From an uncultured Gammaproteobacteria bacterium (lineage in GTDB: Bacteria > Patescibacteriota > Microgenomatia > CAZETR01 > Amesbacteraceae): DNA of 64,000 nucleotides. Position numbers and translations under genes: made by a program. The notes under the pieces are model-generated. The model was given only the letters and a program-made list of their open reading frames with translations, was not told the origin of the DNA and did not search any database. Shown one piece after another: positions 14,529 to 43,095 of the stretch (position 1 is its first letter; every line of letters begins with the position of its first letter). The stretch spans positions 93,352 to 157,351 of the forward strand of contig CAZCXU010000001.1 in NCBI GenBank assembly GCA_964502885.1, given 5' to 3'.

Positions 14529-15647
14529 ATGAAAACAACAGTTTTACAAAGTGATCTGGCAAAATGTTTGGGAACAGTCAGCAGAGTGATACCCAGCAGA
14601 GGGCAGTTGCCTGTGTTGGCAAATGTGCTATTGGAGGCACGCAAAGATGGATTGACCCTAGTAGCAACAAATCTGGAACTTGGAATTCGTGTAATGGTGG
14701 GGGGAAAGATTGAGGAGGAGGGTGACATAACTATTCCGGCGAAAAACTTAACTGAATTTGTATCATCGTTGCCTGCAGGGAGCGTTGATCTATCGACTGA
14801 TGGGGAGAAGATGCTTATTAAGGGCGGAAAGCTATCTGCGACCTTTACAGGGATTTCAGCGATGGAATTTCCGGTGGTACCAAAGATCGAAAGTGTACAA
14901 GGTGGACGAATAGTAAAGATTAAAAGGGCGATGATGGAAAAAGTTGCAAAACAAGTTGCTTTTGCTGCAGCTACAGATGAGAGTAGGCCAGTTTTGACAG
15001 GTGTGGTTTTTATGAGTGAGGGAAATATATTGAAAATTACGGCAAGTGATGGATTTCGATTGAGCAGGAGATTTATTGAGATGGAAAGGGGGTTATGGTT
15101 ATCGGATAAAAGGTTGATTCTTCCGGCAAGAACACTATTGGAGATGTCAAGAATTGCAGCAGAGGGTAAAAAGGAAGAGATTGAGATGGCTGAAATAGCT
15201 GAGAATAACCAGGTTATTATGGCTTACGATGGAATTCAGCTTACATCGCGGATACTGGAGGGTAATTTTCCTGATGTAGAAAAGATTATTCCCGTGGATA
15301 CCAGAACAAAGATTACTCTTGATAGGCAGGAAATGCTGCGGGCGGTTAAGGCAGTGGGGATATTTGCAAGGGACAGTTCGAATATTATCAGGCTTAGAAT
15401 TCAAGATGGCGGGATGATGGTGGAGGCAAGCGCTACTCAGACAGGAGAGAGCACTGTTGAATTGGAAGGGGAGAAGACTGGAGACGATGGACAGATTGCT
15501 TTCAATTACCGGTTTGTGTTGGACTTTTTGAATAGTGTGGATAGTGAGAGAGTTACCTTTGGAATGAATGACAGCCTGGCCTCAGGGTTGTTTGGAATTG
15601 ATGGTGACAATGAATTGCTGCACTTGATAATGCCGGTAAGAGTCTAA
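14529..15647 (+). CDS. dnaN: DNA polymerase III beta sliding clamp
   Basis: 372 aa with three-domain clamp architecture. The N-terminus reads MKTTVLQSDLAKCLGTVSRVIPSRGQLPVLANVLLEA. Confidence 0.9.
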   Translation: MKTTVLQSDLAKCLGTVSRVIPSRGQLPVLANVLLEARKDGLTLVATNLELGIRVMVGGKIEEEGDITIPAKNLTEFVSSLPAGSVDLSTDGEKMLIKGGKLSATFTGISAMEFPVVPKIESVQGGRIVKIKRAMMEKVAKQVAFAAATDESRPVLTGVVFMSEGNILKITASDGFRLSRRFIEMERGLWLSDKRLILPARTLLEMSRIAAEGKKEEIEMAEIAENNQVIMAYDGIQLTSRILEGNFPDVEKIIPVDTRTKITLDRQEMLRAVKAVGIFARDSSNIIRLRIQDGGMMVEASATQTGESTVELEGEKTGDDGQIAFNYRFVLDFLNSVDSERVTFGMNDSLASGLFGIDGDNELLHLIMPVRV

Positions 15648-16150
15648 TGCTCTCTCTCTGAACTATTTATGACGTCCCCTATTGGTGGTGATTGGGCTGG
15701 GGTAAAAGTCATAATAAAAGGTTCCTGAATATTGGGCACACGAAGATTAATCGTGTATTTCTGGTTCAGTTTCCAAGGTTGATTGGGCGTAAAATAAATT
15801 GTCATTCTATTTTTATGAATAATCTTTTTGAATGAAATTCCAGAATTTGAGACGATGATTAATTTGTCTATTTCTGAAAGAGTCAGAGGGCGGTTGAATG
15901 CGTAATATATGGCTGTAGTAGATCCTGCAATGGCGGGTTTGTTGGTTACCGGAGAGGTGTAAGTAAGTTTAAGTGGTATGTTTGGATCGATTGTGGGTGA
16001 AATAGTCGCTTGTGGCGGAGTAACTTGCACATTATTCGGAAGGAGGGAATTGTTGGTGGCAGGCTGAGAATCAGCAAAAAAAGAAGCAATACCAAGAACA
16101 ATGATTATGGTTACTAATGTAGTGATAATTTTTTTGATTTTGGAATTCAT
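15644..16150 (-). CDS. Membrane-anchored hypothetical protein; positionally a PrgL/VirB8-like T4SS candidate
   Basis: N-terminal TM helix, a Pro-rich linker and a roughly 100-aa beta-rich domain. It is the last gene of the minus-strand T4SS-like operon. Confidence 0.3.
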   Translation of the reverse strand: MNSKIKKIITTLVTIIIVLGIASFFADSQPATNNSLLPNNVQVTPPQATISPTIDPNIPLKLTYTSPVTNKPAIAGSTTAIYYAFNRPLTLSEIDKLIIVSNSGISFKKIIHKNRMTIYFTPNQPWKLNQKYTINLRVPNIQEPFIMTFTPAQSPPIGDVINSSEREH

Positions 16151-16161
16151 ATTGTAATATT

Positions 16162-17028
16162 TTAACCACCGCAGAAATAATTTTCAGGACGAACCCAAAC
16201 TCCGTCTATCTGTGCCTCTAGGTGAAGGTGTGTATTGTTTCCCTGATCAAATAGTGCGGTAACAACTGTACCAGATATGGCATCTGTAGCGTAGGAAGAT
16301 GGCACCATAACATGAGTAAGTACTAAGTGGACAGATGTTGTGCCAGACGTTGTGTCGCAGTAGATGGTATTTCCGACTGAACCATTGGCGAATCCGTAAC
16401 GACATGACCAATTTACACTGACACCGTTTACTTGTGGAAGGACCACTCTGGTATCAGAGGAGAATACGTCAGCTGCAAAACCATATTCTGAGCACGAAGC
16501 TCCTCCCCCGGGCTGGTTACAGCGATTTCCATCAGGTGGGGTGGAGGTCCGACAACCGGACCCTTGTGGTATAGAGTAACAACTACCTCCGTATACGTCT
16601 TCCCAGTAATAAGAACTACCGTGTCCTCCCGAGCGATTGTGTTCCTGTGTGGGATTGTAAGAACCAAGAGATATGACTCCTCCAGGGATAGGGCAACTGC
16701 TGGGGTCAGCAAAACCTCCTCCGGGATCAAAAACTCCACCACCTCCAAAGCCGAATCCAAAACGAGAAACCGGAGTTACGAATCCTGAGCTGTTAATTAC
16801 TATTACAGCCATTAGGATGAAGCCAAAAAATATCGCCGTTGCCAACAATGCGATGAAAGCTGTTCCCAGTAGAGTGACTGCGTCGGCAATAAGGTGTTTT
16901 TTGAAATCTGTACCAAATGTTAGAAGTTTGCCGTAAGAAAAGCTTGATATTTTGGTGATATTAATGCTAAAAGCTGATCGAAGGCGACCAATGAGAGGAT
17001 TTATGGGGCCAATAGATAAACTAGCCAT
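16162..17028 (-). CDS. Putative membrane-anchored cell-wall hydrolase (M23-like C-terminal motif), Gly/Cys-rich
   Basis: TM helix near the N-terminus, then a GFGFGGGGVFDPGGG tract and a Cys-rich middle. The C-terminal ...GNNTHLHLEAQIDGVWVRPENYF resembles the M23 HLHFE...G..VDP motif. Confidence 0.3.
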   Translation of the reverse strand: MASLSIGPINPLIGRLRSAFSINITKISSFSYGKLLTFGTDFKKHLIADAVTLLGTAFIALLATAIFFGFILMAVIVINSSGFVTPVSRFGFGFGGGGVFDPGGGFADPSSCPIPGGVISLGSYNPTQEHNRSGGHGSSYYWEDVYGGSCYSIPQGSGCRTSTPPDGNRCNQPGGGASCSEYGFAADVFSSDTRVVLPQVNGVSVNWSCRYGFANGSVGNTIYCDTTSGTTSVHLVLTHVMVPSSYATDAISGTVVTALFDQGNNTHLHLEAQIDGVWVRPENYFCGG

Positions 17029-17033
17029 TATTC

Positions 17034-17321
17034 TTAATGATGATTAATTTCTTCAAGTAATATGAGCGGAAGTTTGAGCAAATGATCCTTTTCTTCCTGA
17101 TAAGGGTCGGAGAAATGTTCATCTGTAGAGTGTGTTTCCACTTCGCGGCGAAGCTCTTCTGTGCTTTTGTGGAGGACCTGCCCAGCCCATTGCCAAAGCG
17201 GGTCAGCGTCTGTTTTGAACTGATCAAAATTATGACAGGAATTACAGATTTCAATTACGGCGTTTTCCAGACTGCTGACGACAGATGGATTTATGTAGTC
17301 AGGGTAGGCAAAAGTGTTCAT
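17034..17321 (-). CDS. Hypothetical small protein in the T4SS-like operon
   Basis: 95-aa ORF, acidic, translationally coupled to the VirB4 stop. Confidence 0.3.
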   Translation of the reverse strand: MNTFAYPDYINPSVVSSLENAVIEICNSCHNFDQFKTDADPLWQWAGQVLHKSTEELRREVETHSTDEHFSDPYQEEKDHLLKLPLILLEEINHH

Positions 17322-19183
17322 TTTGATTCAGGAACCAGTATTGGTTTGGTTTGAGTTTCAGCTTGTTTTTGAGCTAATATTTCGGAGGGTTTGGTGGTAA
17401 TTAGCTTGTGTTCGTCCGGGGATGCTACAAAGCGAACAGCTACGTGATTGTTTCCTGCAAAAAACAGACCTTCTCCAACGTTTGCTGACAGGAGAAGGTG
17501 TTTTTCTCCCTCGGAGAGATAGAAGACCTGGGAAATTTTGTCGACTCCCGCTGGTGATTGTTTCATGAGTATTTGTAGGGAAGAACTGGTGACGATGGCT
17601 TTGCCGTAATCAGTGTTCAAAAAGTCTTCTACGTCCTGAGTAATAGTGGTAAGACCGAGAAAATACTTACGAGCGCGTTTGGCGACGCTGTAGAGGAAAC
17701 TGGCTGAGTCGGGATAACGCATGAGATACCAGGCCTCGTCTACCACAAGAATGCGTTTCTTGAGGTCGCGGCGCATTTTTGTCCAGATATAGTCAAGAAT
17801 GAGAAAGATAGCAATGGGCTTGAGAGAATCTTCGAGATCGCGGACAGAAAAAACTGTAAATTGATTTTTTAGTTGAATATTTGATGGCTGATCGACTATT
17901 CCGGTAAAACTTCCCTTTACAAATCGTTCTAGGCGATCAGCAAGAGATAGGGCTATGGGTTCTTCCATGCCAATGAAAGCTTTGTAAAGATCTTCCATTA
18001 GCGGGGGAGTATTTTTTTGTGTAGCGGGATCAGGGGTGATACCTTTCATACGATAAGCGAGATTGAGGGCGCGATCGAGAAGTGCGTCTTCTGTGGGGCT
18101 AAGGTTTCCCATGATGACTTTGAACATGGAATGCAGCGATTGAATTTTGAGATTAAGCTCGTTTTCATCTGAATTTTGGGTAAGAAGGGAAAGATCAAAG
18201 GGGTTGATGCGATTTTGAGAATTGTAGGAGAAATTGATGTAGTCGCCTCCTACGGCATCACAGAGGGCTTTGTATTCGTTTTCAGGATCTATAACGATTA
18301 TTTCTGTACCAAACATCATGGAACGAACCAGTTCAAGTTTAATGGTGTAAGACTTTCCCGCACCGGATTTGGCGAATACTACTGAGTTGGCGTTTTCCAG
18401 AGAGAAGCGATCAAAAATGACCAAACTGCCGTTGTGCTGATTTATTCCATAGAGGATGCCGTCATTGCTGGTGAGCTCTGATGAGGTGAAAGGGAAGGTG
18501 GTGGCCAGAGAGGTGGTGTCCATGTTTCTGGTGACCATAAGATGGTCGATACAGGTGGGGAGGGTGGTTTTGAAACCTTCAGCCTGCTGGAGGAGTGTGG
18601 GTGTAGAGGCCACTAGAAGAGATGAAAGGGAGCTAGTGACCTGTTTACTGGCAGTTTCAAGTTCGGAGGGGGAATCGGCGGGAATGGTGACATAGAGAGA
18701 GAATTGAAAGAAGCGTTCGATGCCTTTGACGAGTTGATCCTGAAGAGCCAGAGCGTCTTCGAGTTTGGCTTGGGTTACAGGATCGACAACGCGGCCGCGT
18801 TGGGCGTCAGTGTTTAGCTCGGCTTCCATTTCGGCAATCTTTCGACGCAGATCGTCGAGCGTGGACTTGCTTTCTACAGGATAGATGAACATGGAAATAT
18901 TTAGTGAATGGTCAAAATTAATGATGGGACTAAGCCAGTTGCTGGAGACGAAGCGGCGGTTTATTGAGGTGAAGTAGGTGCGGAAATATGTGTCGTTGAT
19001 TTTTAATGAATTGAAATCGATGGTAATGTTTTGTGGGGCGATGATATCCTTGACTGTTTTGGCCTGGGATAATTCTTTTTGGGGGAGAGCCATATTTGTG
19101 TCTGGGACGTTACCGGAGACCTGAGTTGCAGGAGTGGCAGTTTTTTTGACGGGGGTAAGGTTAGGGAGTTTTGGTAGCTTCAT
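17318..19183 (-). CDS. Type IV secretion / conjugation ATPase VirB4 family (C-terminal ATPase portion)
   Basis: Walker A VVFAKSGAGKSYTIK, Walker B ILVVDEAWYLM, and the general VirB4/TraE/CagE architecture. Confidence 0.85.
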   Translation of the reverse strand: MKLPKLPNLTPVKKTATPATQVSGNVPDTNMALPQKELSQAKTVKDIIAPQNITIDFNSLKINDTYFRTYFTSINRRFVSSNWLSPIINFDHSLNISMFIYPVESKSTLDDLRRKIAEMEAELNTDAQRGRVVDPVTQAKLEDALALQDQLVKGIERFFQFSLYVTIPADSPSELETASKQVTSSLSSLLVASTPTLLQQAEGFKTTLPTCIDHLMVTRNMDTTSLATTFPFTSSELTSNDGILYGINQHNGSLVIFDRFSLENANSVVFAKSGAGKSYTIKLELVRSMMFGTEIIVIDPENEYKALCDAVGGDYINFSYNSQNRINPFDLSLLTQNSDENELNLKIQSLHSMFKVIMGNLSPTEDALLDRALNLAYRMKGITPDPATQKNTPPLMEDLYKAFIGMEEPIALSLADRLERFVKGSFTGIVDQPSNIQLKNQFTVFSVRDLEDSLKPIAIFLILDYIWTKMRRDLKKRILVVDEAWYLMRYPDSASFLYSVAKRARKYFLGLTTITQDVEDFLNTDYGKAIVTSSSLQILMKQSPAGVDKISQVFYLSEGEKHLLLSANVGEGLFFAGNNHVAVRFVASPDEHKLITTKPSEILAQKQAETQTKPILVPESK

Positions 19184-19832
19184 TTTTGACTGATGGAACG
19201 GGAACTTTTGGTAAGGTAACGTTTGTTCCCATTACATCCTGATTATAGGAATTAAAAAATAACTGTAATAGTTCATTTGAGGTTATTTGGCGCCCTTTAA
19301 GACCTATGCGAGCGAGAAGTCGCAACAAATGATCTCTTTTGGGAACAAGGTTTGTAATGGCCCGATCAACTATATAGTCTTTGGGGAGAGTGGTATTTGC
19401 TGACTTACCTCCCAGAACTTTCAGCGAAGAACCAACACCTAATTCAAGTGAACTAAATGGCAAAGATATGTAGAATTTTTTATCCAACACATTTCCCTGA
19501 CGAACGATGGCTTTGACGAAGTCGCGATATTTAGTAAGCTGTTCCTTGAGCTTTGATGTGGTGATTTGGGCAAGGTGAGTGTCCAGTTTTTCGATATAAC
19601 TGGAAATATCTTTTCGTTTGCTGATGAGAACGATTTGGATGGAAAAAGTGAGTGAGTTTAGAAGCTGTGCGTAGGCATAAATGGTGGCGTCCTGCTCTCT
19701 TTCTGAAAGAAGACCAAAGTTGACGGCGCTAATTTCCATGACCATACAGGCCGAGCCGTCTTTGAGAATGACGATGTCGTTTTGAATATCTTCAATGTCC
19801 AGATGATCTTGTGTGCGGGGGGGGATAGTCAT
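19161..19832 (-). CDS. VirB4 N-terminal (CagE/TrbE/VirB-like) domain encoded as a separate ORF
   Basis: ...DIVILKDGSACMVMEISAVNFGLLSEREQDATIYAYAQLLNSLTFSIQIVLISKRKDI resembles the N-terminal domain of VirB4 homologues. It overlaps the VirB4 start by 23 nt. An alternative upstream start lies at 19907. Confidence 0.4.
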   Translation of the reverse strand: MTIPPRTQDHLDIEDIQNDIVILKDGSACMVMEISAVNFGLLSEREQDATIYAYAQLLNSLTFSIQIVLISKRKDISSYIEKLDTHLAQITTSKLKEQLTKYRDFVKAIVRQGNVLDKKFYISLPFSSLELGVGSSLKVLGGKSANTTLPKDYIVDRAITNLVPKRDHLLRLLARIGLKGRQITSNELLQLFFNSYNQDVMGTNVTLPKVPVPSVKNEATKTP

Positions 19833-19839
19833 ACTTTTT

Positions 19840-20931
19840 TTAGGTTTTTCCGTGAATAATAACAGGGCTAATAATACTGCCTTTGGCTTGAATAGAAACC
19901 GGGTCAAAAGTTAAACCTTCCTTTTCGGCGATGACGTTGTAAGTTCCGGCTGGCAAGGGAATGGCAATTTGGAACTGACCGAGACGATTGGTTCTTAGGG
20001 CCCGTGCAGGAATACCTGTCTTGGTATCAATAATCTCTACAGTTGTTTGTGCTAACGGCTGGGAAGCTGCATCTACAACCATGCCGGTGAGAATATTCGG
20101 ACTGGCAGGATTGGGAAGCTGAGTGGTGACTGTAGCAGATGGGGCTGAAGGAATATTTACAGGTTTGGGAAGCGGGGGAGTGTTAGCAACAACAGCTGAA
20201 ACACCAGAGGAGGTGAGAATTGGTGAGGTAGGAGTGGTGGGTGTAGCTAAAACTGTTTGTGGTGACGCTTCGGCGTGGGGTGTGCCTGCCGATGAGAAAG
20301 AGGTTGAGATGGTTGGAGTTGAGGTGGAATTTTTAACTGGAGATGTAAAGACTGGTTGGGCGCGTGCAGGGGAAGTGGGGATAGGTGCAGAAGAAGGGGC
20401 AGATGTAGGGATAATGGGGGGAACAGTTGAATTAGGAGCGGGTGTGGGAACAATGGAGGAAATGGCTGAGTTAGGAGTAGTTGATGGAGGTAGAGTTTTT
20501 GCGGTGGACATCTGCGGTTCAATTTTTATGGCAGCAGGAATTGGTGCCGGAACGGTGGTGACTGGTTGAGGTGTAGGTGGCGACGGTGGAGCGGCTGTTG
20601 CAGTGGGTGTGATTGGTGGGGGTGGGGCAAGGCTCGCAACGATTTCGTCAGAGATCCAGACATACTCAGTGGGAGAATAGATGGCTTTAAAAAAAGCGAC
20701 GAGCCAAGTGGTAAAGGGTCGATTGTTGATAGGGATAAAGGCCATGAGTGCACCCGTGGTGATGGAAATAAAAACCAGCGGGTATTTGATTATGGGGATT
20801 AATTGGAGACGGAAAATGAGCACCCCCACAACAATGCCTCCTGCCAGCTGGAGAAATTGCTTGAGGGTCATATCGCCCACGAGACGGAACTCGTAGGAGG
20901 AAATATTTTGCGGGACAGGGTGGTTATCCAT
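19840..20931 (-). CDS. PrgI/TcpE-like (VirB3-analog) two-TM protein with Pro/Thr-rich linker and C-terminal carboxypeptidase-regulatory-like beta domain
   Basis: N-terminal SSYEFRLVGDMTLKQFLQLAGG followed by two TM helices. A long PT-rich low-complexity region. The C-terminus reads GMVVDAASQPLAQTTVEIID...YNVIAEKEGL. Confidence 0.4.
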   Translation of the reverse strand: MDNHPVPQNISSYEFRLVGDMTLKQFLQLAGGIVVGVLIFRLQLIPIIKYPLVFISITTGALMAFIPINNRPFTTWLVAFFKAIYSPTEYVWISDEIVASLAPPPPITPTATAAPPSPPTPQPVTTVPAPIPAAIKIEPQMSTAKTLPPSTTPNSAISSIVPTPAPNSTVPPIIPTSAPSSAPIPTSPARAQPVFTSPVKNSTSTPTISTSFSSAGTPHAEASPQTVLATPTTPTSPILTSSGVSAVVANTPPLPKPVNIPSAPSATVTTQLPNPASPNILTGMVVDAASQPLAQTTVEIIDTKTGIPARALRTNRLGQFQIAIPLPAGTYNVIAEKEGLTFDPVSIQAKGSIISPVIIHGKT

Positions 20932-21005
20932 AAGCTGGTTTACATTTATCCTACCGCGTGAAAGAGAGTTTGCAAGCTAATGTTTTCACATACTAGAATA
21001 GAGTC

Positions 21006-21128
21006 ATGGTTGAGCAGGGAAACTTCAAAGATAAGGTTGCTTTTGTGTTTGGTGGTGCAATCCTTGGATTGATGGGATTGGTGGCTATAATCTTGAAGAT
21101 TGTGGGGAGGATTTGTGGCTGTTTCTGA
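21006..21128 (+). CDS. Possible 40-aa hydrophobic micro-protein (not in ORF track)
   Basis: Hand translation gives MVEQGNFKDKVAFVFGGAILGLMGLVAIILKIVGRICGCF*, a single TM helix, in the divergent region between the prgI-like gene and the 926-aa gene. Confidence 0.2.
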   Translation: MVEQGNFKDKVAFVFGGAILGLMGLVAIILKIVGRICGCF

Positions 21129-21181
21129 ATCTATCCTATAGTTGATAATTCGTGGTAAAATGAGAGTGTTATACTAATTTC

Positions 21182-23962: not shown

Positions 23963-24020
23963 TTAAAAAAGTGGTCTGGTGGATGGTTTATTCGGATAAG
24001 TTGTTTATAGAATGCGTAGC

Positions 24021-25751: not shown

Positions 25752-25797
25752 TTTTACTTTAGAATAAATAGATCAAACATGCAATAACAGTGGTTGG

Positions 25798-28700: not shown

Positions 28701-29460
28701 GACAGGAAACCAGATAGTTGTGGTACTGTGACCCTACGTTGTTGCTGGCAACGGTTTCCTTTATGTCATCACGGAAGTCTTTTGGATATAATTTGTTTAT
28801 TGGCCCTGAATAAGAGGTGATGCGTTTAGTGTCGGCCGGATCGAAACCGTTTAAGGGAAGTTTTTCTGACTGGAATACCGTACCATTCAGATACCAATTA
28901 AGATATTGGTTAACTTTGTAATCGTCGGGAATTGCAACTTCGGTCTGGCCGAAAATGGGGAGTTGGGAGTTGGTCGCATTGATAGCGACTGTCCAGCGAA
29001 CTCGTTTGACGTAGCAAATGTCTGTGGATCCTGACTCACAGAGATAGTCGTCAGAACGATCGCCGCCCTCCTGGGTTAGGGGGACACTGATGGGGTTGGC
29101 CGGGAGGACTGAAAGACCACACATGTCAATAACGTCTGAGACCTCATCGTAACCTGAGACATTTAGGGATTTGGCACAATGAAATGAGAGATAGACTTTA
29201 TTGGGATCGTCCGGGGCTTCGGGGACTTTTGCGGGAATGAGGACATCGCAAGGGTTTCCAGGATAGGGTCTTAGCGGATGAAATTCCGGATCGTTTCCGG
29301 TATTTGTGTGGCAAGGATAATTAAATGGAGCCGGCCAGGGGTTACGGGTAAAAAATCCGAGAGTGGGGGTCTGGGCGTGAATAAGATTTAGCCATGGAGT
29401 GATGGCAGAAAAGACTGCTACAACAGAGCTTACTACTAACAACTTAACGGTCGGTTTCAT
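25798..29460 (-). CDS. Giant secreted Cys-rich modular protein (1220 aa), putative surface adhesin or tip protein
   Basis: Signal peptide MKPTVKLLVVSSVVAVFSAITPWLNLIHA. Poly-Pro linkers (PPTAPPPPPPIPTPV, TPTPTPTPP). Dense Cys modules (CDANPCPAGAGNCINRPCSLEGDECND...CCAPTDEYAC). It sits directly upstream of the pilin array. Confidence 0.55.
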   Translation of the reverse strand: MKPTVKLLVVSSVVAVFSAITPWLNLIHAQTPTLGFFTRNPWPAPFNYPCHTNTGNDPEFHPLRPYPGNPCDVLIPAKVPEAPDDPNKVYLSFHCAKSLNVSGYDEVSDVIDMCGLSVLPANPISVPLTQEGGDRSDDYLCESGSTDICYVKRVRWTVAINATNSQLPIFGQTEVAIPDDYKVNQYLNWYLNGTVFQSEKLPLNGFDPADTKRITSYSGPINKLYPKDFRDDIKETVASNNVGSQYHNYLVSCQRNIDFDYVLDALEAIFTNSFGSFLDVVRMIDIIRRVGMNNMQDFGGALVNIALLPGDQFNPIGIRNVLLNYGFTVIANNLDDVNMLFSLGRNLLSRIGNITAALRLDLAEPCVSSTLRRRLSWVASNFDTETWTHKYINYSTLEDTVSEFTASVIPEAQPVDIDGRILTIGLSFPTLISGRFDSRLYFPHMKSAVPLSSLVQALHQPYPVIVPPTAPPPPPPIPTPVLSTNPADYLRAFYLPAYNLIDVYYGLPGMGEALWNQFHVFDPTTNQDYGPLSNYVDPSVSVQRYYEGIIPTWPHSYYRYGGSSQWFVSRGLPGSIRIRLAGSSYSSQTVVLATPTPTPTPPAATHAPLFSSENSNMFSQRVARHQGFGASEGHSDETVVLCQRYFAGSILRGCSGGGTVIRNTEIIDGPAPAALYVPSDFTCDEAETRTSSGDRLLGNVLNGNLTYRQLFRYTPRLVIGCDANPCPAGAGNCINRPCSLEGDECNDQLPGGECCTIQIGQRCPWISECYHASSTYDCRAPGPNGCGENREIIDLDCGNAGEICCAPTDEYACRSRSGYDSYASVCSALDQTGCTAAGMSPYCEWRVVRAAPALAPRPPHCPVWPTRNLRSAARVNPFVKTPYIEKLYDILVAGPNSVLRRWMPKLPLTGTYEACTTTSPRDLGICSNQLTETACQAMASQGYSCIWQITQTDYDITNNRDVSIPAGTSAAYNGQVQNLINPRVTAGRNVASGGIGGGLRTSGGAFYFPKVGSLADHILGVPTRENLNLQRALRPKGFVGSVSPIDSPGGINCNTNLPETNTPCVDRTNYIDIARRWTNFPDGTFAELCYNDVVTRADAAGVNPGLSLLIWLNESDASNYEANTPVEDFGVHVGQYNTPNNFDQQITGHLLTVNAIRSRCASEINTYGGVRVFSAIYLVGDSCIPTAESDLYALGDGTAANPGLQGKWEWIAPSCPFPFP

Positions 29461-29484
29461 GGGCTACACTATTCTAGCAAATCT

Positions 29485-29880
29485 TTAGGAGCAGCCGATG
29501 CCTCTGGCTATACAGATATCAAATATTCCCAAATTGATACCGAGGAAAGTGCCAATAAGGTTGACTATTACGAATGCTGACAAGGTGATTATTAATCCTG
29601 CAAGAGAAAAGATAATTGTATTTCTTGCTTGTTCGGTTTGGGCTTTGTCTGCTCCTGCAGCTAGATACTTGTATCCACCAATAACCAGAAATCCTAAAGA
29701 AATGAAAACAAAAAGGCTGATGATTGCGGTAATCGCAGCGGCTATTACTCTATTTAGGTTCTGGAGCATTGCGGGCGGAGTAGGGTTTGCAATTGTTGTT
29801 TGAGCTTGAGCGACAGTAGGCCATGCTAATACGAATACAGATGCGGCCAACGTGATCAGTGAGCGAATTGTTGTGTACAT
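29485..29880 (-). CDS. T4SS pilin-like protein (VirB2/TrbC-like two-helix), paralog 1
   Basis: Signal peptide, then TM1-GADKAQTEQARNTI-TM2. It ends in a CxxxxxC tail. Confidence 0.55.
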   Translation of the reverse strand: MYTTIRSLITLAASVFVLAWPTVAQAQTTIANPTPPAMLQNLNRVIAAAITAIISLFVFISLGFLVIGGYKYLAAGADKAQTEQARNTIIFSLAGLIITLSAFVIVNLIGTFLGINLGIFDICIARGIGCS

Positions 29881-29960
29881 CTGTTTTTAATATAGGGCAA
29901 AAAAACAACCCCGGCAAGGGCCCGGGGTTGTTTTGGCCATTTCTGGCCGGTTCCAAAAAC

Positions 29961-30326
29961 TTATGAACCAATCGTTGCGAGATTGAATTCGATAAGGTTG
30001 ACGTTGAAGAGAACACGCAGAATGTACAGTAAGGCGTAAGCAGAGAAGACGATTGCCAAACCGATTAAGGCGGCAGTGATCTTCTTGCGAGCTTTTTCGG
30101 TACCTTCTTTGTCTCCACCAGCGAGAATCCATTGTAAACCACCCCAAAGTAGGATGATAAAGGAAGCTACGCCAGCGATACCCAACATAAGATTCAAGAT
30201 GGTTCTCAAGAAATCTGATGGGGTATAGTTCTTCAAAGTGTCGAAACGTGTATCGACGTTAGCCACGCTACCGACATCCGAGTCTGGAATAGGAAGAGCA
30301 AGTTGTGCAAGTAGTCTCATCATCAA
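29961..30326 (-). CDS. T4SS pilin-like protein, paralog 2
   Basis: LGIAGVASFIILLWGGLQWILAGGDKEGTEKARKKITAALIGLAIVFSAYALLYILRVLFNVNLIEF. Confidence 0.6.
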   Translation of the reverse strand: MMMRLLAQLALPIPDSDVGSVANVDTRFDTLKNYTPSDFLRTILNLMLGIAGVASFIILLWGGLQWILAGGDKEGTEKARKKITAALIGLAIVFSAYALLYILRVLFNVNLIEFNLATIGS

Positions 30327-30379
30327 ATCTCACCGCCTTTCAGTGGAAAGTATAACATAAAATCAGTGCCGGAGGCTAA

Positions 30380-30754
30380 TTAGAGGGGTGTGATAGTGTA
30401 CTCAATGAGATTGACGTTGAAGAGGGTACGGATGATATACAGAATCGCATAGGATGAAAATACGATAGCCAATCCTATGAGAGCATAGCTGATTTTGCGG
30501 CGAGCTTTCTCGACTGCGTCTTTGTCGGATCCAGCGGTAATCCATTGAAACCCACCTATTAGGAGGAATAAGAATGCGGCAACACCTGACAGGCCCAGGA
30601 GGGCAAGAATCGACGTGCGGATATAGCTGGCGGGCTGAATATTGTAGGTGTTAGCAAAAGGAGAGTTGGGGTCGCGTAGATCTATTAATTGCTGGGCATC
30701 AATAGAAGGAGGAAAGAGAAGCAAGCTTGCCAGGAGAGCGAGAATCAGTTTCAT
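30380..30754 (-). CDS. T4SS pilin-like protein, paralog 3
   Basis: Signal peptide plus ...WITAGSDKDAVEKARRKISYALIGLAIVFSSYAILYIIRTLFNVNLIEY. Confidence 0.6.
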   Translation of the reverse strand: MKLILALLASLLLFPPSIDAQQLIDLRDPNSPFANTYNIQPASYIRTSILALLGLSGVAAFLFLLIGGFQWITAGSDKDAVEKARRKISYALIGLAIVFSSYAILYIIRTLFNVNLIEYTITPL

Positions 30755-30782
30755 GTGAGTTCGAGTTTATAAGAAAGGGTTG

Positions 30783-31454
30783 TCAGTTACAAGGGATGCA
30801 GGTAATCAGGCCACATCCAGTCGTGCCGAGCGGAGTCCAAGAGCCGTTTGATTCGCATCGGAAACATGGACCATTTATGACAGATGTTGATCCTAACGTG
30901 CCTGCCGGAATGCATCTTCCAGTTGCAGATCCGCCACAGGCACACATGCCGGATGGTGGGGTGATGTCGCAGCCGGGATCTGTGGGGTTAGTACAAGGAA
31001 TCCCTGAATCCCAGGGATCACTACCAGGAGCAGGTGGGTTGGGGTCGTTGATCTGAGAGGAAATTTCCCCGATATGTCCGAGGTTGAATTGAATTAAATT
31101 GATGTTAAAGAGGGTGCGGAGAGCAAAAAGGAAACTGTAGGCTGAAAAAACAATTACCAGTCCAATTAAAGCCTGAACAACCTTTCTGCGGGCTTTTTCA
31201 ATTGCGTCTTTATCACCACCAGCCAGTATCCACTGAATACCGCCGATAAGCAGGAATATAAAAGAAAAAACTCCTGCCAGTTGGAGGAGAAGGTTTAGAA
31301 GTGTGGTCAATATCATTGATGGGGTGAGGCTGCGAATTGTCGTAAAATCCGGATCGACGTTTTGTTCTATGCCAATGTAGTCTTGTGCTTTTGCGGTTGC
31401 AGGCATTAAGAACATAGAAATAACTGTGGAGATGTGAACCAGGTGGTTTCGCAT
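30783..31454 (-). CDS. T4SS pilin-like protein, paralog 4, with C-terminal Cys-rich extension
   Basis: Pilin core (...WILAGGDKDAIEKARRKVVQALIGLVIVFSAYSFLFALRTLFNINLIQF) followed by a 90-aa tail carrying about 11 Cys. Confidence 0.6.
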   Translation of the reverse strand: MRNHLVHISTVISMFLMPATAKAQDYIGIEQNVDPDFTTIRSLTPSMILTTLLNLLLQLAGVFSFIFLLIGGIQWILAGGDKDAIEKARRKVVQALIGLVIVFSAYSFLFALRTLFNINLIQFNLGHIGEISSQINDPNPPAPGSDPWDSGIPCTNPTDPGCDITPPSGMCACGGSATGRCIPAGTLGSTSVINGPCFRCESNGSWTPLGTTGCGLITCIPCN

Positions 31455-31460
31455 GGGTAA

Positions 31461-31802
31461 TTAGAGGTTTCTTAAGGTGAATCCAATCGGATTTACATTA
31501 AATAGGACACGCAATATATAAAGAATGGCGTAGGAAGAAAAGACGATAACTAAACCTATCAGCGCGTTGATGATTTTACGGCGGGCTTTGTCGATACCAT
31601 CTTTGTCGCCACCGGCAGTAATCCACTGAACTCCACCCCAGAGCAGATAAATAAAGAAGCCAACACCAGCAAGACCCAAGAGAAGACTGATGGCTGTAGC
31701 GACATAAGCGGAGGGTTTGAGGTTTGTAATGTAGTCGTAGTTGCTGTCACCAGAATTGACAGTGATGGGAACAAATTGAGCCAATAGGTGTTGGTTGATC
31801 AT
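31461..31802 (-). CDS. T4SS pilin-like protein, paralog 5
   Basis: ...WITAGGDKDGIDKARRKIINALIGLVIVFSSYAILYILRVLFNVNPIGF. Confidence 0.6.
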   Translation of the reverse strand: MINQHLLAQFVPITVNSGDSNYDYITNLKPSAYVATAISLLLGLAGVGFFIYLLWGGVQWITAGGDKDGIDKARRKIINALIGLVIVFSSYAILYILRVLFNVNPIGFTLRNL

Positions 31803-32131
31803 AGTTCAGGAACGTTGAGGGAGAGAATCGAGACGCCAAATAACACTTCGATTATCCAAATGATTACGAATGAAGAAAGAAGTATGGCAATTCCAATAAG
31901 GGCATTACGAATACGGTGTGTGGCTTTCTGGACGCCTTCCTTATCTCCGCCGGCGGTGATATAGGCAAAACCACCCATTAACAAGTTGACGAAAAAATAA
32001 ATTCCACTTAATCCCATGACGGCATTTAAGACGTTTCTTAGTAGCAACTGGACCATGCTGTCAGCCTCGTTGACGTTGATATTTCCGATTTGACTGTTGA
32101 CCGCAGGGTTGACGATGGTAAACAGATACAT
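31799..32131 (-). CDS. T4SS pilin-like protein, paralog 6
   Basis: ...YITAGGDKEGVQKATHRIRNALIGIAILLSSFVIIWIIEVLFGV. Confidence 0.55.
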   Translation of the reverse strand: MYLFTIVNPAVNSQIGNINVNEADSMVQLLLRNVLNAVMGLSGIYFFVNLLMGGFAYITAGGDKEGVQKATHRIRNALIGIAILLSSFVIIWIIEVLFGVSILSLNVPEL

Positions 32132-32134
32132 ATT

Positions 32135-32554
32135 TTAAGGTGAAGCAACAATTAACTGCAATCCGAGACGAAAGATGTCCAATCCCAGGAATCGGCCAAT
32201 GATTCCAATTAGTCCGTATGATCCAACAACTATGAACATACCCAATATGGAAGTGGAAAGACGTTTTTTGCTTACCTCCACGGTATTTTTATCGCCACCG
32301 GCACCAATCCACTGCATTCCGGAAAGGACTATTTGATAGATGAACCAAAGTGACGCGACTATAGTGAGTAAACCGAGGATAGAAGAAACAAATTTTTCCA
32401 ACATATCTCCGGGCCCTCCACCTGTGCCAGTCATAAAAAGTCCTGAATGTCCAAATGTACCCAGAGGTCCGACACCGTCAATGTTTCCCAAGTTGACTTG
32501 AGCTAAAAGGTTTCTCATGGGGTGAATATCCGTGGTGAAATAAGCGTGTTCCAT
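32135..32554 (-). CDS. T4SS pilin-like protein, paralog 7
   Basis: ...WIGAGGDKNTVEVSKKRLSTSILGMFIVVGSYGLIGIIGRFLGL. The real start may be an internal Met. Confidence 0.5.
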   Translation of the reverse strand: MEHAYFTTDIHPMRNLLAQVNLGNIDGVGPLGTFGHSGLFMTGTGGGPGDMLEKFVSSILGLLTIVASLWFIYQIVLSGMQWIGAGGDKNTVEVSKKRLSTSILGMFIVVGSYGLIGIIGRFLGLDIFRLGLQLIVASP

Positions 32555-32874
32555 CCATTAATACCATACAGGAAGAGGCCGATGACGCTGGCGATGACTA
32601 ATGATCCGGTGACTATGGCTAGTCCCAGAAAGGATTGCCAAATGCGCTCGTGGGCTTTTTGGACCATTTTGGGGTCGCCATTTGCGCTTAAGTATCCATA
32701 CCCTGCCAAAATTAGATTGATCAATGTGTATATACCAGCCAGGATTATGGAGAGTCGGATGAGGCTGCTAAGAATTAAGATAAGACCTTCGCCCTGAGTG
32801 CCAGCTGCGAGTCTGGGATTGTTGTATCCGGATGTCCCAAATGGATTGTCGATAGTGCCGAATGCTCCTAACAT
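32515..32874 (-). CDS. T4SS pilin-like protein, paralog 8
   Basis: ...YLSANGDPKMVQKAHERIWQSFLGLAIVTGSLVIASVIGLFL. Confidence 0.5.
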   Translation of the reverse strand: MLGAFGTIDNPFGTSGYNNPRLAAGTQGEGLILILSSLIRLSIILAGIYTLINLILAGYGYLSANGDPKMVQKAHERIWQSFLGLAIVTGSLVIASVIGLFLYGINGWNTLISPRIFTP

Positions 32875-32880
32875 AGTTTT

Positions 32881-33231
32881 TTAGACGAATGGCGGGTCAA
32901 TTAAGTTTACACCTGTAATGGTAGATATAATCTGAAGTATAAAATAAGCACTAATGACTAGCAATAAGCCCAGAACTCCATAAGTGACGGAATTTTTTCC
33001 TTGCTGAACACGTTGTGGAGGGTTGATTTGTCCGCCAAAGATAATTAGTAAGTAACCTCCGTGGATGATGAGATAAATGAAATAAAGACTGGCGATTGCC
33101 ATGGCATTGAGGAGTAAGAGAGAGACAATATCGCCCAATTGACCACGGAAAGGGGAGGTGGCCCCAACGTTGGGATGGTTGACGAAAAACTTGTCTTGCA
33201 AGTTTACTGGCGGGTTAAGAAGCTGAAACAT
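32881..33231 (-). CDS. T4SS pilin-like protein, paralog 9 (divergent)
   Basis: Two hydrophobic helices flanking a ...GGQINPPQRVQQGKNSVTYGVLGLL motif. Confidence 0.45.
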   Translation of the reverse strand: MFQLLNPPVNLQDKFFVNHPNVGATSPFRGQLGDIVSLLLLNAMAIASLYFIYLIIHGGYLLIIFGGQINPPQRVQQGKNSVTYGVLGLLLVISAYFILQIISTITGVNLIDPPFV

Positions 33232-33234
33232 TTT

Positions 33235-33540
33235 TTAGATTAAGTTGGTGCGGGTAATAGTTTGAATTATTTGCAAAATAAAGAAGGCACTAACTACAGT
33301 AAGGAGGCCAAGAAGCGCGTTGGTGATCTGTCTTTTTATCTGCATGAGTTTGGCTTCGTCGCCCAGGCTTCCCATATATGCGAATCCCGCTGTAATCAGA
33401 TGGTAAAGAAAATAGAGTCCGGCTCCGGCCATGGCAAAGAGAATAGTGCGAGAGGCGATTGTTGAGGGTAGTGTGGCACTGGTCGAGAATCGGCCGGAGG
33501 TGTGGATGAAATCGGGAATCTGAGCTAAATGTGAGTTCAT
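33235..33540 (-). CDS. T4SS pilin-like protein, paralog 10
   Basis: ...YMGSLGDEAKLMQIKRQITNALLGLLTVVSAFFILQIIQTIT. Confidence 0.5.
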   Translation of the reverse strand: MNSHLAQIPDFIHTSGRFSTSATLPSTIASRTILFAMAGAGLYFLYHLITAGFAYMGSLGDEAKLMQIKRQITNALLGLLTVVSAFFILQIIQTITRTNLI

Positions 33541-34055
33541 TAGAGTCGGAAACCAAATAAGGAGAGACCTAAGACGTTAAATCCTAAGAAGTTGAGAACG
33601 ACGATGGCGGAAGTGATAAGAATTAAACCTAGTACTGCCGAGGTGAGTGTGTCTTTGGCGGAATTAATTTTTTTAGGGTCGCCTTCAGCGGTGGCAATAG
33701 TGAAACCCGCATATACGATCAGAAGAAGAGTAGCCAGGCCGGCCAAACCAACTGCCCAAGTAGCAATAATCCAGACTGTATTTTGAGTATCGGAGGTGGG
33801 TATACAACCTAAGGCTGTCCTAATAGCACCAGTGCCTGCACAAAAAGGATTTTGAGCATTACATTCTGCTACAGTGTCGCAACAAAGATGTTCCATAGGG
33901 TTTGCACATTGAGGGCGGGCGACACAGGGACTGTAAGTACCCCATATTGTTCGAGAACGGATTTCACACCAGCTGTAAGTTGGATCTGGGAGGGATAATA
34001 CTGACGTGACAAATAAAAGTGTTGTGATAAGTATTCTAAGTGGTGCAGATTTCAC
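33540..34055 (-). CDS. T4SS pilin-like protein, paralog 11, with N-terminal Cys-rich secreted module
   Basis: Signal peptide, then a roughly 70-aa module with 10 Cys, then the pilin core (...FTIATAEGDPKKINSAKDTLTSAVLGLILITSAIVVLNFLGF). Confidence 0.5.
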   Translation of the reverse strand: MKSAPLRILITTLLFVTSVLSLPDPTYSWCEIRSRTIWGTYSPCVARPQCANPMEHLCCDTVAECNAQNPFCAGTGAIRTALGCIPTSDTQNTVWIIATWAVGLAGLATLLLIVYAGFTIATAEGDPKKINSAKDTLTSAVLGLILITSAIVVLNFLGFNVLGLSLFGFRL

Positions 34056-34080
34056 AGATTAAGTTTAGCATAATTCGGGT

Positions 34081-35868
34081 ATGATAATTGGTATGACGAA
34101 AGTGAGACTTACAATAATATGTTTAATAACGTTTTTATGGATAACCATGACATCTTCGGTGCGGGCAGAGGAGTGTGATAATCCAGGAAGTTTGTCTGAT
34201 CCAGTAACAATAACCAGATGCATAGGCAAATTTAATGGAATATTGGAAGCGATTTCGAAAGCAAATTCTAACAACAAGCAGCAGCTGCAGGGGATGCAGC
34301 AACAGATTGCCAAACTACAAGCGCAAATAAAAGCTTTGGAGATGCAAATCGGGGTGCTACAAAAAGGAATATTTGAAAGAGAAGTACGGGTGGGGGTGAA
34401 ACAGGAACTGTTGTCTGCGAAAGTGAGACGTGACTATGTAGTGAAACGAGATCAGCCAATATTGCAGGTGTTGTTTGCTGCTGATGGGGCAGCGGATTTT
34501 TTTCAAGATATGTTTTTGCGGGAGAAGTTGGCGCGGCTGGACCATGCATTGATTGTGTCTGTGGGGGGGGAGATTAAAAATTTGAATGATCAGGCGCAAA
34601 CTTTATCGTCCCAAAAACAAAAACTGGCGAGTCTTCAGGCGCAAGTAGATAAGCAGGCGGATTTTCTACAGGCGGAAGTCGAAAAAGCCAGTAAATATGA
34701 GTCTGATTTGGGAGGGAAGATCTCAGCATTGACCGCTAGGCAACAGGAATTGCTGGCGGAAAAGACTGGGACTATCGCCACTTCGGTCGGAGATGTACCA
34801 CTAGCTGACGATCCGGCCGCGAGACCGGATTACAATCCAGGTTTTTCACCGGCGTTTGCCATGTTTTCGTTCGGGGCGCCACACTTTAAAGGGATGAGCC
34901 AATATGGGGCTTTGGGTAGGGCCAAGGCAGGCCAGAGTTATGAGACCATTCTTAAGGCTTACTATGGTGATGTGAGGATTGTGGATGTGGGAACGGGTTT
35001 TTCGATAAGGACAAGTGCAGGAACAATGCCAATGGAGGATAGATATATGAAGGGGATAGCGGAGATGCCGACGTCGTGGGCAAATGACGGGGGAATGGAG
35101 GCGTTGAAGGCGCAAGCGATAGCGGCCAGAAGCTATGCGTTGAGTTATGTGGGGTGGCGAATGGGTAAACAATCAGCCGGAGGTTCGATTTGTGTGACGG
35201 AAGCGTGTCAGGTATGGAGATCGTCGAAAGCAAACAGTCCCGGAGCGTGGGGAAGTGCTGTTGATCAGACTAAGGGAAAGATTTTGGTGAGTAACAAAAC
35301 GGGAGAAATTATTAGCGCCTGGTATGCGAGTACGTCGGGAGGTTATCAGGAAAGTTATACCACCTTGGGCCATACTACTCCTGGATTTTGGGACACGACA
35401 TCAAATTGGACGAGGTGGGCAGATGGAGCGTATGAGGTAAAAGCAGGAAGTCCGTGGTTTTATAAAGGCTGGTACAAGACCAGGACAGGAAAAACCTGTG
35501 GCAGGGCACATCCGTGGCTTAACCAGGAGGAGTTCTCAGATATGGTGAATGCTGCCATTGTGGTGGAAAGAGGTGGAGATGTGTCGGGAATTTTTCCTGA
35601 AGATGTGAGGAGTTGTTGGGGTGGAAGTGACAATCCATGGTCAAAAGACCGGTTGGCACAGGAAGCGGACAAGCATGGTGGCCGGGTGACGAGTGTCGGT
35701 AGTGTGAGAGTGGAGCATGGAAACAATGGTATTACAAACAAGGTAATACTTTCGACAAATAGAGGAGAAGTTACGATTACCGGAAGTAATTTCAAACGAG
35801 CATTTAATTTGCGCGCCCCAGGAGCTCTAGCTTTGAAGAGTGGACTTTTTAATATCGAAAAGAAGTGA
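34081..35868 (+). CDS. SpoIID/LytB-domain peptidoglycan hydrolase with N-terminal signal/TM and coiled-coil region
   Basis: Coiled-coil Q-rich N-terminus. SpoIID/LytB motifs ...MEALKAQAIAARSYALSY...AWYASTSGGYQESY.... Confidence 0.55.
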   Translation: MIIGMTKVRLTIICLITFLWITMTSSVRAEECDNPGSLSDPVTITRCIGKFNGILEAISKANSNNKQQLQGMQQQIAKLQAQIKALEMQIGVLQKGIFEREVRVGVKQELLSAKVRRDYVVKRDQPILQVLFAADGAADFFQDMFLREKLARLDHALIVSVGGEIKNLNDQAQTLSSQKQKLASLQAQVDKQADFLQAEVEKASKYESDLGGKISALTARQQELLAEKTGTIATSVGDVPLADDPAARPDYNPGFSPAFAMFSFGAPHFKGMSQYGALGRAKAGQSYETILKAYYGDVRIVDVGTGFSIRTSAGTMPMEDRYMKGIAEMPTSWANDGGMEALKAQAIAARSYALSYVGWRMGKQSAGGSICVTEACQVWRSSKANSPGAWGSAVDQTKGKILVSNKTGEIISAWYASTSGGYQESYTTLGHTTPGFWDTTSNWTRWADGAYEVKAGSPWFYKGWYKTRTGKTCGRAHPWLNQEEFSDMVNAAIVVERGGDVSGIFPEDVRSCWGGSDNPWSKDRLAQEADKHGGRVTSVGSVRVEHGNNGITNKVILSTNRGEVTITGSNFKRAFNLRAPGALALKSGLFNIEKK

Positions 35869-43050: not shown

Positions 43051-43095
43051 GCATCCTCCGTTATCTCGCACTCTTTCTTCGCAGCGGAGCTGCTG

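Follow-up and report, generated by a model that had tools for sequence, protein, structure and literature searches.

The stretch of DNA considered here, referred to as the window, encompasses 64,000 nucleotides (64 kb) of contig CAZCXU010000001.1 and harbors, beside the genes dnaA and dnaN, a large cluster of genes that encode a type IV secretion system (T4SS). The locus is probably a chromosomal, vertically inherited example of the Patescibacteria-clade T4SS, carried by a Microgenomatia bacterium related to Candidatus (Ca.) Amesbacteria and used for host contact rather than for conjugation. A first-pass annotation of this DNA had already described a chromosomal T4SS-like locus with a Gram-positive-style gene set next to oriC and directly downstream of dnaN. 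All of the open reading frames (ORFs) that it listed are present where it placed them, and most of its assignments hold. The genes are arranged in two minus-strand operons, with one large gene between them on the opposite strand and a further group of plus-strand genes at the far end. The first operon is convergent with dnaN, overlaps the end of that gene by 4 bp, and is transcribed in the following order (lengths in amino acids, aa; TM, transmembrane):

19840..20931, minus strand: PrgI/VirB3-like protein with two TM helices, 363 aa; PF12666 5.7e-8 (33.6 bits, cutoff 27)
19161..19832, minus strand: TrsD-like protein, the split-off N-terminal domain of VirB4, 223 aa from the ATG at 19832
17318..19183, minus strand: VirB4-type ATPase without the N-terminal domain, 621 aa; NF045971, P-loop_TraG, PDB 4ag5
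17034..17321, minus strand: acidic cytoplasmic protein, 95 aa; kept in the closest relatives only
16162..17028, minus strand: protein of 288 aa with a TM anchor, a linker rich in Gly and a divergent M23/LytM-like domain rich in Cys; assigned from homologues and a profile
15644..16150, minus strand: membrane protein with an Ig-like (Big_5) ectodomain, 168 aa, last gene of the operon; PF13205

By its sequence, the VirB4 protein belongs to the CD1110/MPF_FATA-type family of monoderm bacteria. It matches NF045971 (conju_CD1110) with 377.5 bits (cutoff 325) over model positions 183-734 of 752, P-loop_TraG at 2.5e-29 and the solved VirB4 C-terminal domain (PDB 4ag5) at 3.6e-54, and its Walker A and B motifs, GAGKS and VVDEAW, are intact. 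The closest plasmid-borne VirB4 proteins are those of Bacillota and Actinomycetota, with 35-37% identity; a weak match to the archaeal DNA importer CedB (NF041017, 5e-11) lies far under the cutoff. The N-terminal domain is found in the preceding TrsD-like ORF, which matches positions 111-230 of VirB4_plasma (2.5e-8) and positions 8-94 of CD1110, and also TrsD NF041427 under its cutoff (2e-5). Its orthologues in two related loci, L001 and L083 (the L numbers denote the loci described below), carry PF26593 TraC-like. A sequencing frameshift can be ruled out as the cause of the split, because separate TrsD and VirB4 proteins are conserved in most of the related loci. The two are fused in L006 and L009, which encode VirB4 proteins of 822 and 791 aa and no separate TrsD.

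Classical VirB3/PrgI proteins are around 100 aa in length. In the PrgI/VirB3-like protein of the window, a low-complexity Pro/Thr/Ser linker of ~180 aa joins the two-TM domain to a C-terminal, Ig-like CarboxypepD_reg domain (PF13620, 6.7e-9), an architecture that is repeated in L001 and L083. Among the genes downstream of virB4, the 95-aa protein has no Pfam or NCBIfam family match, and its homologues directly follow virB4 in L003 (4e-34) and L083 (3.6e-37). Identification of the 288-aa protein as a divergent M23-like peptidoglycan hydrolase, a putative endopeptidase, is weakly supported. The protein itself has no Pfam match; the homologues that immediately follow virB4 in L014 and L037 give sub-threshold matches to PF01551 (1e-5 and 1e-3), and VanY or NAGPA domains, known from wall hydrolases, are present in those of L010, L037 and L056. 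The best PDB matches to a profile of five sequences of the family are M23 enzymes (8s3m at 0.0026, then 3slu, 6muk and SpoIIQ; E 0.003-0.25), and the family alignment contains an invariant NTHLHxE motif (HLH(L)E) and two further invariant His residues, with no clear first zinc motif HxxxD. The 168-aa protein, finally, has a TM helix at residues 3-30 and a Big_5 match above cutoff (7.6e-7, 30.2 bits, cutoff 23.6), and is hardly conserved across the related loci. The operon had been read in the first-pass annotation as a PrgI-PrgJ-hydrolase-PrgL series. Within that series PrgI and the VirB4-family ATPase stand and the hydrolase is weakly M23-like, but the 168-aa protein resembles PrgL in position only: it matches Big_5 instead and shares no sequence similarity with VirB8/PrgL families or PDB entries.

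The second minus-strand operon starts with an array of 11 pilin genes and continues with the genes for a very large secreted protein, called the giant below, and a polytopic membrane protein. The opposite-strand gene that separates the two operons is listed last:

33540..34055, minus strand: pilin 11, first gene of the array, 171 aa; PF18895 2.7e-9, NF045849 1.6e-8
33235..33540, minus strand: pilin 10, 101 aa; PF18895 0.0027 (sub-cutoff), 45% identity to pilin 9
32881..33231, minus strand: pilin 9, 116 aa; PF18895 2.9e-6
32515..32874, minus strand: pilin 8, 119 aa; PF18895 6.3e-4 (sub-cutoff), and alignment
32135..32554, minus strand: pilin 7, 139 aa; PF18895 0.0019 (sub-cutoff), aligning over the two-TM core and the AGGDK loop
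31799..32131, minus strand: pilin 6, 110 aa; PF18895 4.8e-8
31461..31802, minus strand: pilin 5, 113 aa; PF18895 5.8e-8
30783..31454, minus strand: pilin 4, 223 aa, with a C-terminal Cys-rich extension of ~100 aa (10 Cys); PF18895 2.2e-8
30380..30754, minus strand: pilin 3, 124 aa; PF18895 3.3e-8
29961..30326, minus strand: pilin 2, 121 aa; PF18895 9.1e-11, TrbC 1.7e-5
29485..29880, minus strand: pilin 1, 131 aa, with a Sec signal peptide; PF18895 8.5e-6 (26.2 bits, cutoff 26.6), NF045849 2.7e-7
25798..29460, minus strand: the giant, a Sec-type secreted Cys-rich protein, 1220 aa; signal-like N-terminal helix, 40 Cys
24021..25751, minus strand: VirB6-type polytopic membrane protein with an N-terminal extracytoplasmic helical domain, 576 aa
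21182..23962, plus strand: soluble protein without signal peptide or TM helix, 926 aa; divergently transcribed, positionally conserved, hypervariable

All 11 small ORFs match the T4SS_pilin family PF18895, 7 of them above the gathering cutoff, which bears out the earlier count of pilin-like genes. The pilins share a common two-TM core with an AGGDK loop and are otherwise divergent, with a mean pairwise identity of 28% and a maximum of 58%. The best NCBIfam match of all 10 window pilins tested, under its cutoff in each case, is NF045849, a pilin-like family of Mycoplasma integrative and conjugative elements (ICEs). Many pilins of the array have no Sec-type signal and show a short conserved start, M-x-x-L-[LI]-A-Q (MMMRLLAQ, MINQHLLAQ and MNSHLAQ in the window), which is present within the first 10 residues of 156 of the 538 pilin ORFs across the loci. 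Reminiscent of the A-x-A|Q cleavage of VirB2/TrbC, this start may act as a short leader or mark a site of processing. Pilin 11 carries a signal peptide followed by an N-terminal Cys-rich extension of ~70 aa with 8 Cys, and pilins with at least 6 Cys account for 69 of the 538. The composition of the extended pilins, the giant and the M23-like protein suggests that they form disulfide-stabilized surface modules.

The 576-aa protein is polytopic by hydropathy, with at least five TM helices, and its gene lies between the pilin and giant genes and that for PrgI. In its AlphaFold2 (AF2) model, long helices run across residues 243-471 with a pLDDT of about 85-94, and the predicted fold best matches TrwI/VirB6 and DotA, which would agree with the VirB6-like label given in the first-pass annotation. 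No match was found to Pfam TrbL or NCBIfam VirB6, and a profile search against PDB sequences came back empty. At least 250 homologues exist, and those listed are all unannotated; where an organism is named, it is one of Ca. Amesbacteria, Woesebacteria or 'Microgenomates'. A profile search gave 4940 matches, of which the best 150 were all close relatives, with no annotated VirB6/TrbL protein to act as a bridge.

The giant consists of conserved N-terminal (~40-260) and C-terminal (~985-1220) modules on either side of a variable Cys-rich middle, and the C-terminal module contains an invariant WLNES..NY..DFG motif. Homologues of about 660 to 1550 aa are encoded between the pilin array and the VirB6-like gene in 51 of 82 related loci. 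In those at L010:5358-9815 and L017:5443-9891, from other Microgenomatia, the two conserved modules enclose GDSL lipase/acylhydrolase and GH5 cellulase domains, and these insertions point to swappable enzymatic cargo. The full-length AF2 model has a pLDDT of 46, Foldseek found nothing better than E=3, and neither Pfam nor the PDB provided a fold assignment. The WLNES motif brought to mind a lysozyme/SLT domain, but the PDB profile search with the C-terminal module returned spurious Vav matches only, and a Pfam search of 17 homologues at E<=1 gave nothing relevant; this candidate was rejected. There is likewise no evidence that the giant resembles VirB5.

The 926-aa protein has no match in Pfam, NCBIfam or the PDB, and a search of 5.8e9 proteins returned only itself. 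It had been called an orphan, yet it is no random insertion: an opposite-strand protein of 427-1282 aa is encoded between the VirB6-like and PrgI genes in all 68 loci that span this gap, the largest such protein being at least 526 aa in 67 of them. Among positional equivalents of at least 500 aa, 63 of 70 are without TM helices, and none of the 59 that were scanned has a Pfam domain, toxin and enzyme domains included. The equivalents fall into several clusters joined by mosaic similarities. An N-terminal motif, M[PSD]D.MS[PSQ]E (MDDMSSE in the window), occurs across clusters in 12 of the 68 and in none of 412 control ORFs.

Beyond the pilin array, and divergent from it, the following genes complete the locus:

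34081..35868, plus strand: SpoIID-domain protein with a signal peptide, a coiled coil and the SpoIID domain, 595 aa; PF08486 1.2e-14
35903..36870, plus strand: membrane protein of 241 aa and DUF5657 protein of 81 aa; PF18901 1.2e-16 (DUF5657)

The SpoIID hydrolase noted earlier is confirmed by the Pfam match, and occupies the same position in 35 of the 82 loci, a count limited by flank length; the triplet of SpoIID, 241-aa and DUF5657 genes lies beside the array in about 30.

The related loci were collected with a profile of the 576-aa protein, which yielded 80, and by an exact-protein look-up, which added 3 more; ORFs were called in the first 82, with 10-kb flanks that limit the hit counts per locus. 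Almost all of them come from Amesbacteria, Woesebacteria and other Microgenomatia. A class-wide gene order is seen in them, wholly or in part. From the far side, the genes for DUF5657, the 241-aa protein and SpoIID point away from the pilin array, which is followed in the other direction by the giant and the VirB6-like protein. Then comes the large soluble protein on the opposite strand and, toward dnaN, PrgI, TrsD, VirB4 and, in some form, the hydrolase. Matches were found to PrgI in 68 loci, TrsD in 66, VirB4 in 58, the pilins in 70, the giant in 51 and SpoIID in 35, and the modal size of the array is 8 pilins, with a maximum of 13 in L001. Gene-order comparison with relatives from the candidate phyla radiation (CPR), as proposed in the first-pass annotation, therefore returns the same layout in most of the 82 loci and, since almost all of these belong to Microgenomatia, indicates a vertically inherited chromosomal system rather than an ICE.

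Conservation within this layout is graded. In comparison with the closest relatives, identity is 83-89% for VirB4 (in the four closest), 68-82% for TrsD and about 70% for SpoIID (68-71% in L083 and L015), falling to 33-59% for the VirB6-like protein, 36-75% for the pilins, 32-58% over partial coverage for the giant and 0-29% for the 926-aa protein. Such a gradient, with conserved cytoplasmic parts and apparently fast-evolving surface parts, fits a chromosomal system inherited vertically and does not fit an ICE. The affinity of the host bacterium is reflected in the named homologues, from Ca. Amesbacteria, Woesebacteria and Microgenomates, and in the presence in the window of the CPR-typical DUF5657 and T4SS_pilin families. 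Many GTDB representative records with this type of locus, among them L003, L005 and L008-L012, are titled 'uncultured Gammaproteobacteria bacterium', an apparent mislabel.

The chromosomal setting of the locus is defined on one side by the replication initiation genes:

12917-14275, plus strand: dnaA; Pfam Bac_DnaA 2.7e-59
14290..14479: candidate oriC, a cluster of DnaA boxes in the spacer between dnaA and dnaN, with one more perfect box at 12887-12895 upstream of dnaA
14529-15647, plus strand: dnaN; Pfam DNA_pol3_beta N-terminal, central and C-terminal domains

The perfect DnaA box TTATCCACA occurs only three times in the whole 64 kb, at 12887, 14381 and 14471, all flanking dnaA, and boxes with one mismatch lie beside these at 14290 and 14333. 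Because perfect and one-mismatch boxes cluster here, a replication origin at dnaA/dnaN is plausible. GC skew does not change sign at dnaA and is positive in all 2-kb bins of the window, 1-64000 (0.04-0.45), with values of 0.04-0.20 to the left of dnaA that are below those of the plus-strand gene regions to the right (0.3-0.45), so that the position of oriC is deduced from gene context and DnaA boxes. Genes resembling rpmH, rnpA, yidC and jag precede dnaA, and the locus as a whole is flanked by the housekeeping genes rnpA-rpmH-dnaA-dnaN on one side and by conserved CPR genes on the other. Its G+C content is close to that of the rest of the window, and a scan of the locus for promoters and terminators gave counts equal to the shuffled expectation.

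The Pfam scan took in nearly every window ORF of at least 70 aa, including every large one, and found no coupling protein (VirD4), relaxase, VirB11, integrase or recombinase. As far as the coupling protein and relaxase are concerned, this absence covers the 64-kb window only, which means ±25 kb around the locus. The first-pass annotation had likewise seen no VirD4, relaxase or VirB11, and the typical ICE, with relaxase and integrase nearby, that it had set against its own reading is not found here. A scan of the window for RNA genes located no tRNA inside the locus or at its borders; the RNA gene closest to it is a tmRNA at 40240-40639.

Several neighboring genes lie outside the system. A 619-aa protein (36914-38773) with one TM helix, a repeat-rich C-terminal half and no family match is found in just two related loci (L029 and L072), and was left out of it for this reason. 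Further on are a gene for a GIY-YIG nuclease (39873-40202), the tmRNA and then a ComFC-like gene (40706-41392), which encodes a double zinc ribbon and a phosphoribosyltransferase. Four tRNA-Ser and two tRNA-Arg genes are scattered among glycosyltransferase genes at 42600-53200, and two DUF4012 proteins are encoded at 6671-8806 and 57846-59279.

Systems of this kind, Gram-positive-like, with a pilin array, without a relaxase and near dnaA, have already been described between 2023 and 2025 (PMC10633639, PMC12102498). Quinonero-Coronel et al. (2025; PMC12102498) surveyed 2,474 virB4 loci of Patescibacteria, the VirB4 proteins of which form a clade sister to MPF_FATA. They report TrsD adjoining virB4, PrgI/VirB3 and VirB6 components, with VirB6 'scarce' in Microgenomatia, and arrays of 2-11 VirB2-like pilin genes (mean identity 25%, maximum 54%) that are enriched in Microgenomatia and Saccharimonadia. 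Relaxases are nearly absent, many genomes encode VirD4 homologues at a long distance from virB4, and in Microgenomatia and Paceibacteria the loci are noted to lie close to dnaA/dnaN. The survey proposes the import of DNA or other macromolecules, notes that in class ABY1 the T4SS has comF, recG and radA in its vicinity, and leaves open whether the pilin was co-opted from diderm systems. In the Saccharibacteria version, Wang et al. (2023; PMC10633639) showed that epibiotic growth of Ca. Southlakia epibionticum requires the cluster SEML1_0006-0019 together with its pilins; the cluster contains no recognized coupling protein or relaxase, and protein export was suggested as one option. A FEMS review of 2025 places these systems among monoderm T4SSs and names pili as a potential feature.

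The locus in the window shares with the Patescibacteria-clade T4SS a VirB4 of MPF_FATA affinity, TrsD next to it, PrgI/VirB3, a peptidase gene (putative here) that follows virB4 and a PF18895/PF04956 pilin array of similarly low paralogue identity (mean and maximum of 28% and 58% here, against 25% and 54% as published), as well as the lack of a nearby relaxase or coupling protein and the dnaA/dnaN location known from Microgenomatia and Paceibacteria (PMC12102498). Its 11 pilins are at the top of the published range, which the 13 of L001 exceed. The 576-aa family, with its VirB6/DotA-like predicted fold, occurs where the survey found VirB6 to be scarce, and is probably that missing subunit. The giant, the hypervariable soluble protein and the SpoIID-241-aa-DUF5657 neighbors find no mention in the consulted portions of PMC12102498 and PMC10633639. 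The earlier suggestion that the combination seen here is an undescribed variant must consequently be withdrawn, as the same combination is reported in PMC12102498 and its Saccharibacteria version in PMC10633639. Apart from this claim of novelty and the assignment of PrgL, the first-pass interpretation was largely right.

A collinear module also exists on the megaplasmid NZ_CP062975 (L084) of the Bacillota bacterium Pontibacillus sp. ALD_SL1, at 351801-361354 and adjoining flagellar genes. Two pilin-like genes are followed, in order, by those for an 8-TM protein, a PrgI-like protein with 2 TM helices, TrsD, VirB4 and an M23 endopeptidase; one pilin-like gene is annotated as 'Mbov_0395 family pilin-like conjugal transfer protein', and the annotation within ±12 kb shows neither a relaxase nor a coupling protein. 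Homology to the window extends to TrsD (1.9e-29) and the 621-aa VirB4 (1.5e-115, 35% identity), and is not demonstrated between the 8-TM protein and the 576-aa family (hhalign probability 32%). The module differs in having two pilins, an M23 protein of 1050 aa and a PrgI without linker and Ig domain, in lacking both a giant and a divergent large soluble gene, and in residing on a megaplasmid rather than at an oriC-proximal chromosomal site. VirB2-like pilins are thus found in monoderm T4SS modules beyond Patescibacteria as well. Together with the NF045849 matches of the window pilins, the module suggests that the monoderm ancestor already had the pilin-like gene, and that the core of pilin, TrsD, VirB4 and M23 protein pre-existed in monoderm elements and need not come from Gram-negative systems.

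With the Prg/Pcf system of the Enterococcus plasmid pCF10, an MPF_FATA representative, the window has in common the PrgI-like VirB3, the PrgJ-like VirB4-family ATPase, a polytopic protein resembling VirB6, a putative wall hydrolase encoded behind the ATPase and the absence of an outer-membrane core complex. The hydrolase is M23-like in the window, whereas PrgK of pCF10 is of the SLT/CHAP type. In contrast to systems of the pCF10/pIP501 type, the window has no PcfC-type coupling protein, relaxase, origin of transfer (oriT) or PrgB adhesin, no VirB8 fold (PrgL, TraM, TcpC) is recognized in it, its small membrane protein being Ig-like, and it has VirB2-like pilins, which are absent from these plasmids. 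The VirB-type systems of R388 and Agrobacterium (MPF_T) share the two-helix VirB2-type pilin, VirB3, VirB4, a VirB6-type subunit with a TrwI-like predicted fold and a large secreted protein encoded between pilin genes and virB6, roughly in the position of virB5. The window, however, is monoderm in type, without the VirB7, VirB9 and VirB10 core, VirB11 or VirD4, and its VirB4 is split and its pilin amplified to 11 paralogues.

The locus thus comprises a monoderm inner-membrane core of the MPF_FATA/CD1110 type, 11 divergent VirB2-like pilins, putative wall enzymes (the M23-like protein and SpoIID) and the secreted giant. In those T4SSs that have been studied, pilus biogenesis requires VirB4 but not VirD4. 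From this set of parts we infer a VirB4-driven pilus or conduit for host contact, and not a conjugation machine. VirB4, acting with TrsD and docked on PrgI and the VirB6-like protein, would pull pilins from the membrane and polymerize them into a filament or conduit of mixed pilins that crosses the cell wall, and the M23-like hydrolase and SpoIID would open the wall for its passage. The giant and the Cys-rich extensions of pilins 4 and 11 would be situated on or near the filament, as the candidate host-contact surface, and the machine would serve host attachment and the exchange of macromolecules rather than conjugative export of DNA. Its position beside oriC may raise gene dosage. The host-interaction role favored in the first-pass annotation is in line with the published view, which likewise prefers a non-conjugative function (PMC10633639, PMC12102498).

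Some points weigh against this proposal. No filament has been seen in Microgenomatia, where the function is a deduction, and with 64 kb of the genome covered, a distal coupling protein or relaxase is possible. No VirB8-like subunit is recognized in the locus, and the M23 assignment is weakly supported, being sub-threshold and without an evident HxxxD motif. What the giant, the 926-aa protein and SpoIID are proposed to do is read from position and conservation, and the dosage idea from gene context around an origin at which the skew keeps its sign. One alternative would be that the locus is a functional or decayed ICE, or part of one, the relaxase and coupling protein of which lie outside the window. 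The CD1110 family of VirB4 and the TrsD and PrgI genes do derive from monoderm conjugative elements, the window is a limited sample of the genome, and the 2025 survey counts 109 relaxases among Patescibacteria genomes; in only 15 cases, though, is a relaxase near virB4 (PMC12102498). The window itself holds no integrase, relaxase, coupling protein, flanking repeats or tRNA target; the locus is similar in G+C content to the rest of it and is flanked by housekeeping and conserved CPR genes. Insertion context and gene order recur class-wide, together with the high VirB4 identity among the four closest relatives. On the flanking context, the class-wide conservation and the lack of a border tRNA, the ICE explanation is rejected, and retains only a very slight probability.

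Two further explanations accept the same machine but give it a different substrate, and both appear unlikely. The ComB uptake system of Helicobacter pylori is a T4SS without a coupling protein, and provides a precedent for a functional sub-variant in which a ComB- or Ced-like system takes in host or environmental DNA, for nucleotides or for transformation. The weak CedB match of VirB4 and the ComFC-like gene 5 kb away would agree with this, as would the proposal of DNA or macromolecule import and the comF, recG and radA genes near the ABY1 systems (PMC12102498). On the other hand, no DNA-binding or translocase component is recognized in the locus, and unrelated genes and the tmRNA separate ComFC from it. 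In Southlakia, moreover, comEC is dispensable and competence depends on type IV pili and ComEC (PMC12857230), so that the essential role of the T4SS there is not ComEC-linked uptake. The opposite direction of transport is equally doubtful: the hypervariable, signal-less 926-aa protein would be a translocated effector and the giant an envelope-degrading accessory. The constant presence of a large soluble protein between VirB6 and PrgI, its evolution far faster than that of VirB4, the mosaic nature of its class, the N-terminal motif shared across clusters and missing from controls, and the GDSL-lipase or GH5 domains of giant homologues are all consistent with export, which is also one option in Wang et al. 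(PMC10633639). Against it stand the lack of a coupling protein to recruit cytoplasmic substrates, the absence of toxin or enzyme domains from the 59 positional equivalents, the restriction of the motif to about 18% of them, and the fact that weak constraint alone could explain the fast evolution. A more specific version, to which we also give a low probability, is that the Microgenomatia T4SS carries two undescribed conserved accessories that set host specificity, the 926-aa class, with members of about 570-1280 aa, as a T4SS-delivered effector and the giant as a pilus-associated adhesin in the VirB5 position that attacks the host envelope.

A large part of bacterial diversity falls within Patescibacteria, which live attached to other microbes, and their T4SS is the first that has been shown to be essential for its own carrier bacterium. 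Within this family, the proposed host-contact system described here is a clean and complete Microgenomatia example and no new kind of system. What it adds is modest, namely a candidate VirB6 family, the collinear Pontibacillus module, the positionally conserved hypervariable protein and the conserved terminal modules of the giant. The locus draws its interest from accessory proteins that are so far unexplained, and not from the T4SS itself. The comparison across loci yields candidates for the VirB6 subunit, for a possible tip or adhesin protein and for a possible effector, and these candidates are leads on how ultrasmall epibionts exploit their hosts.

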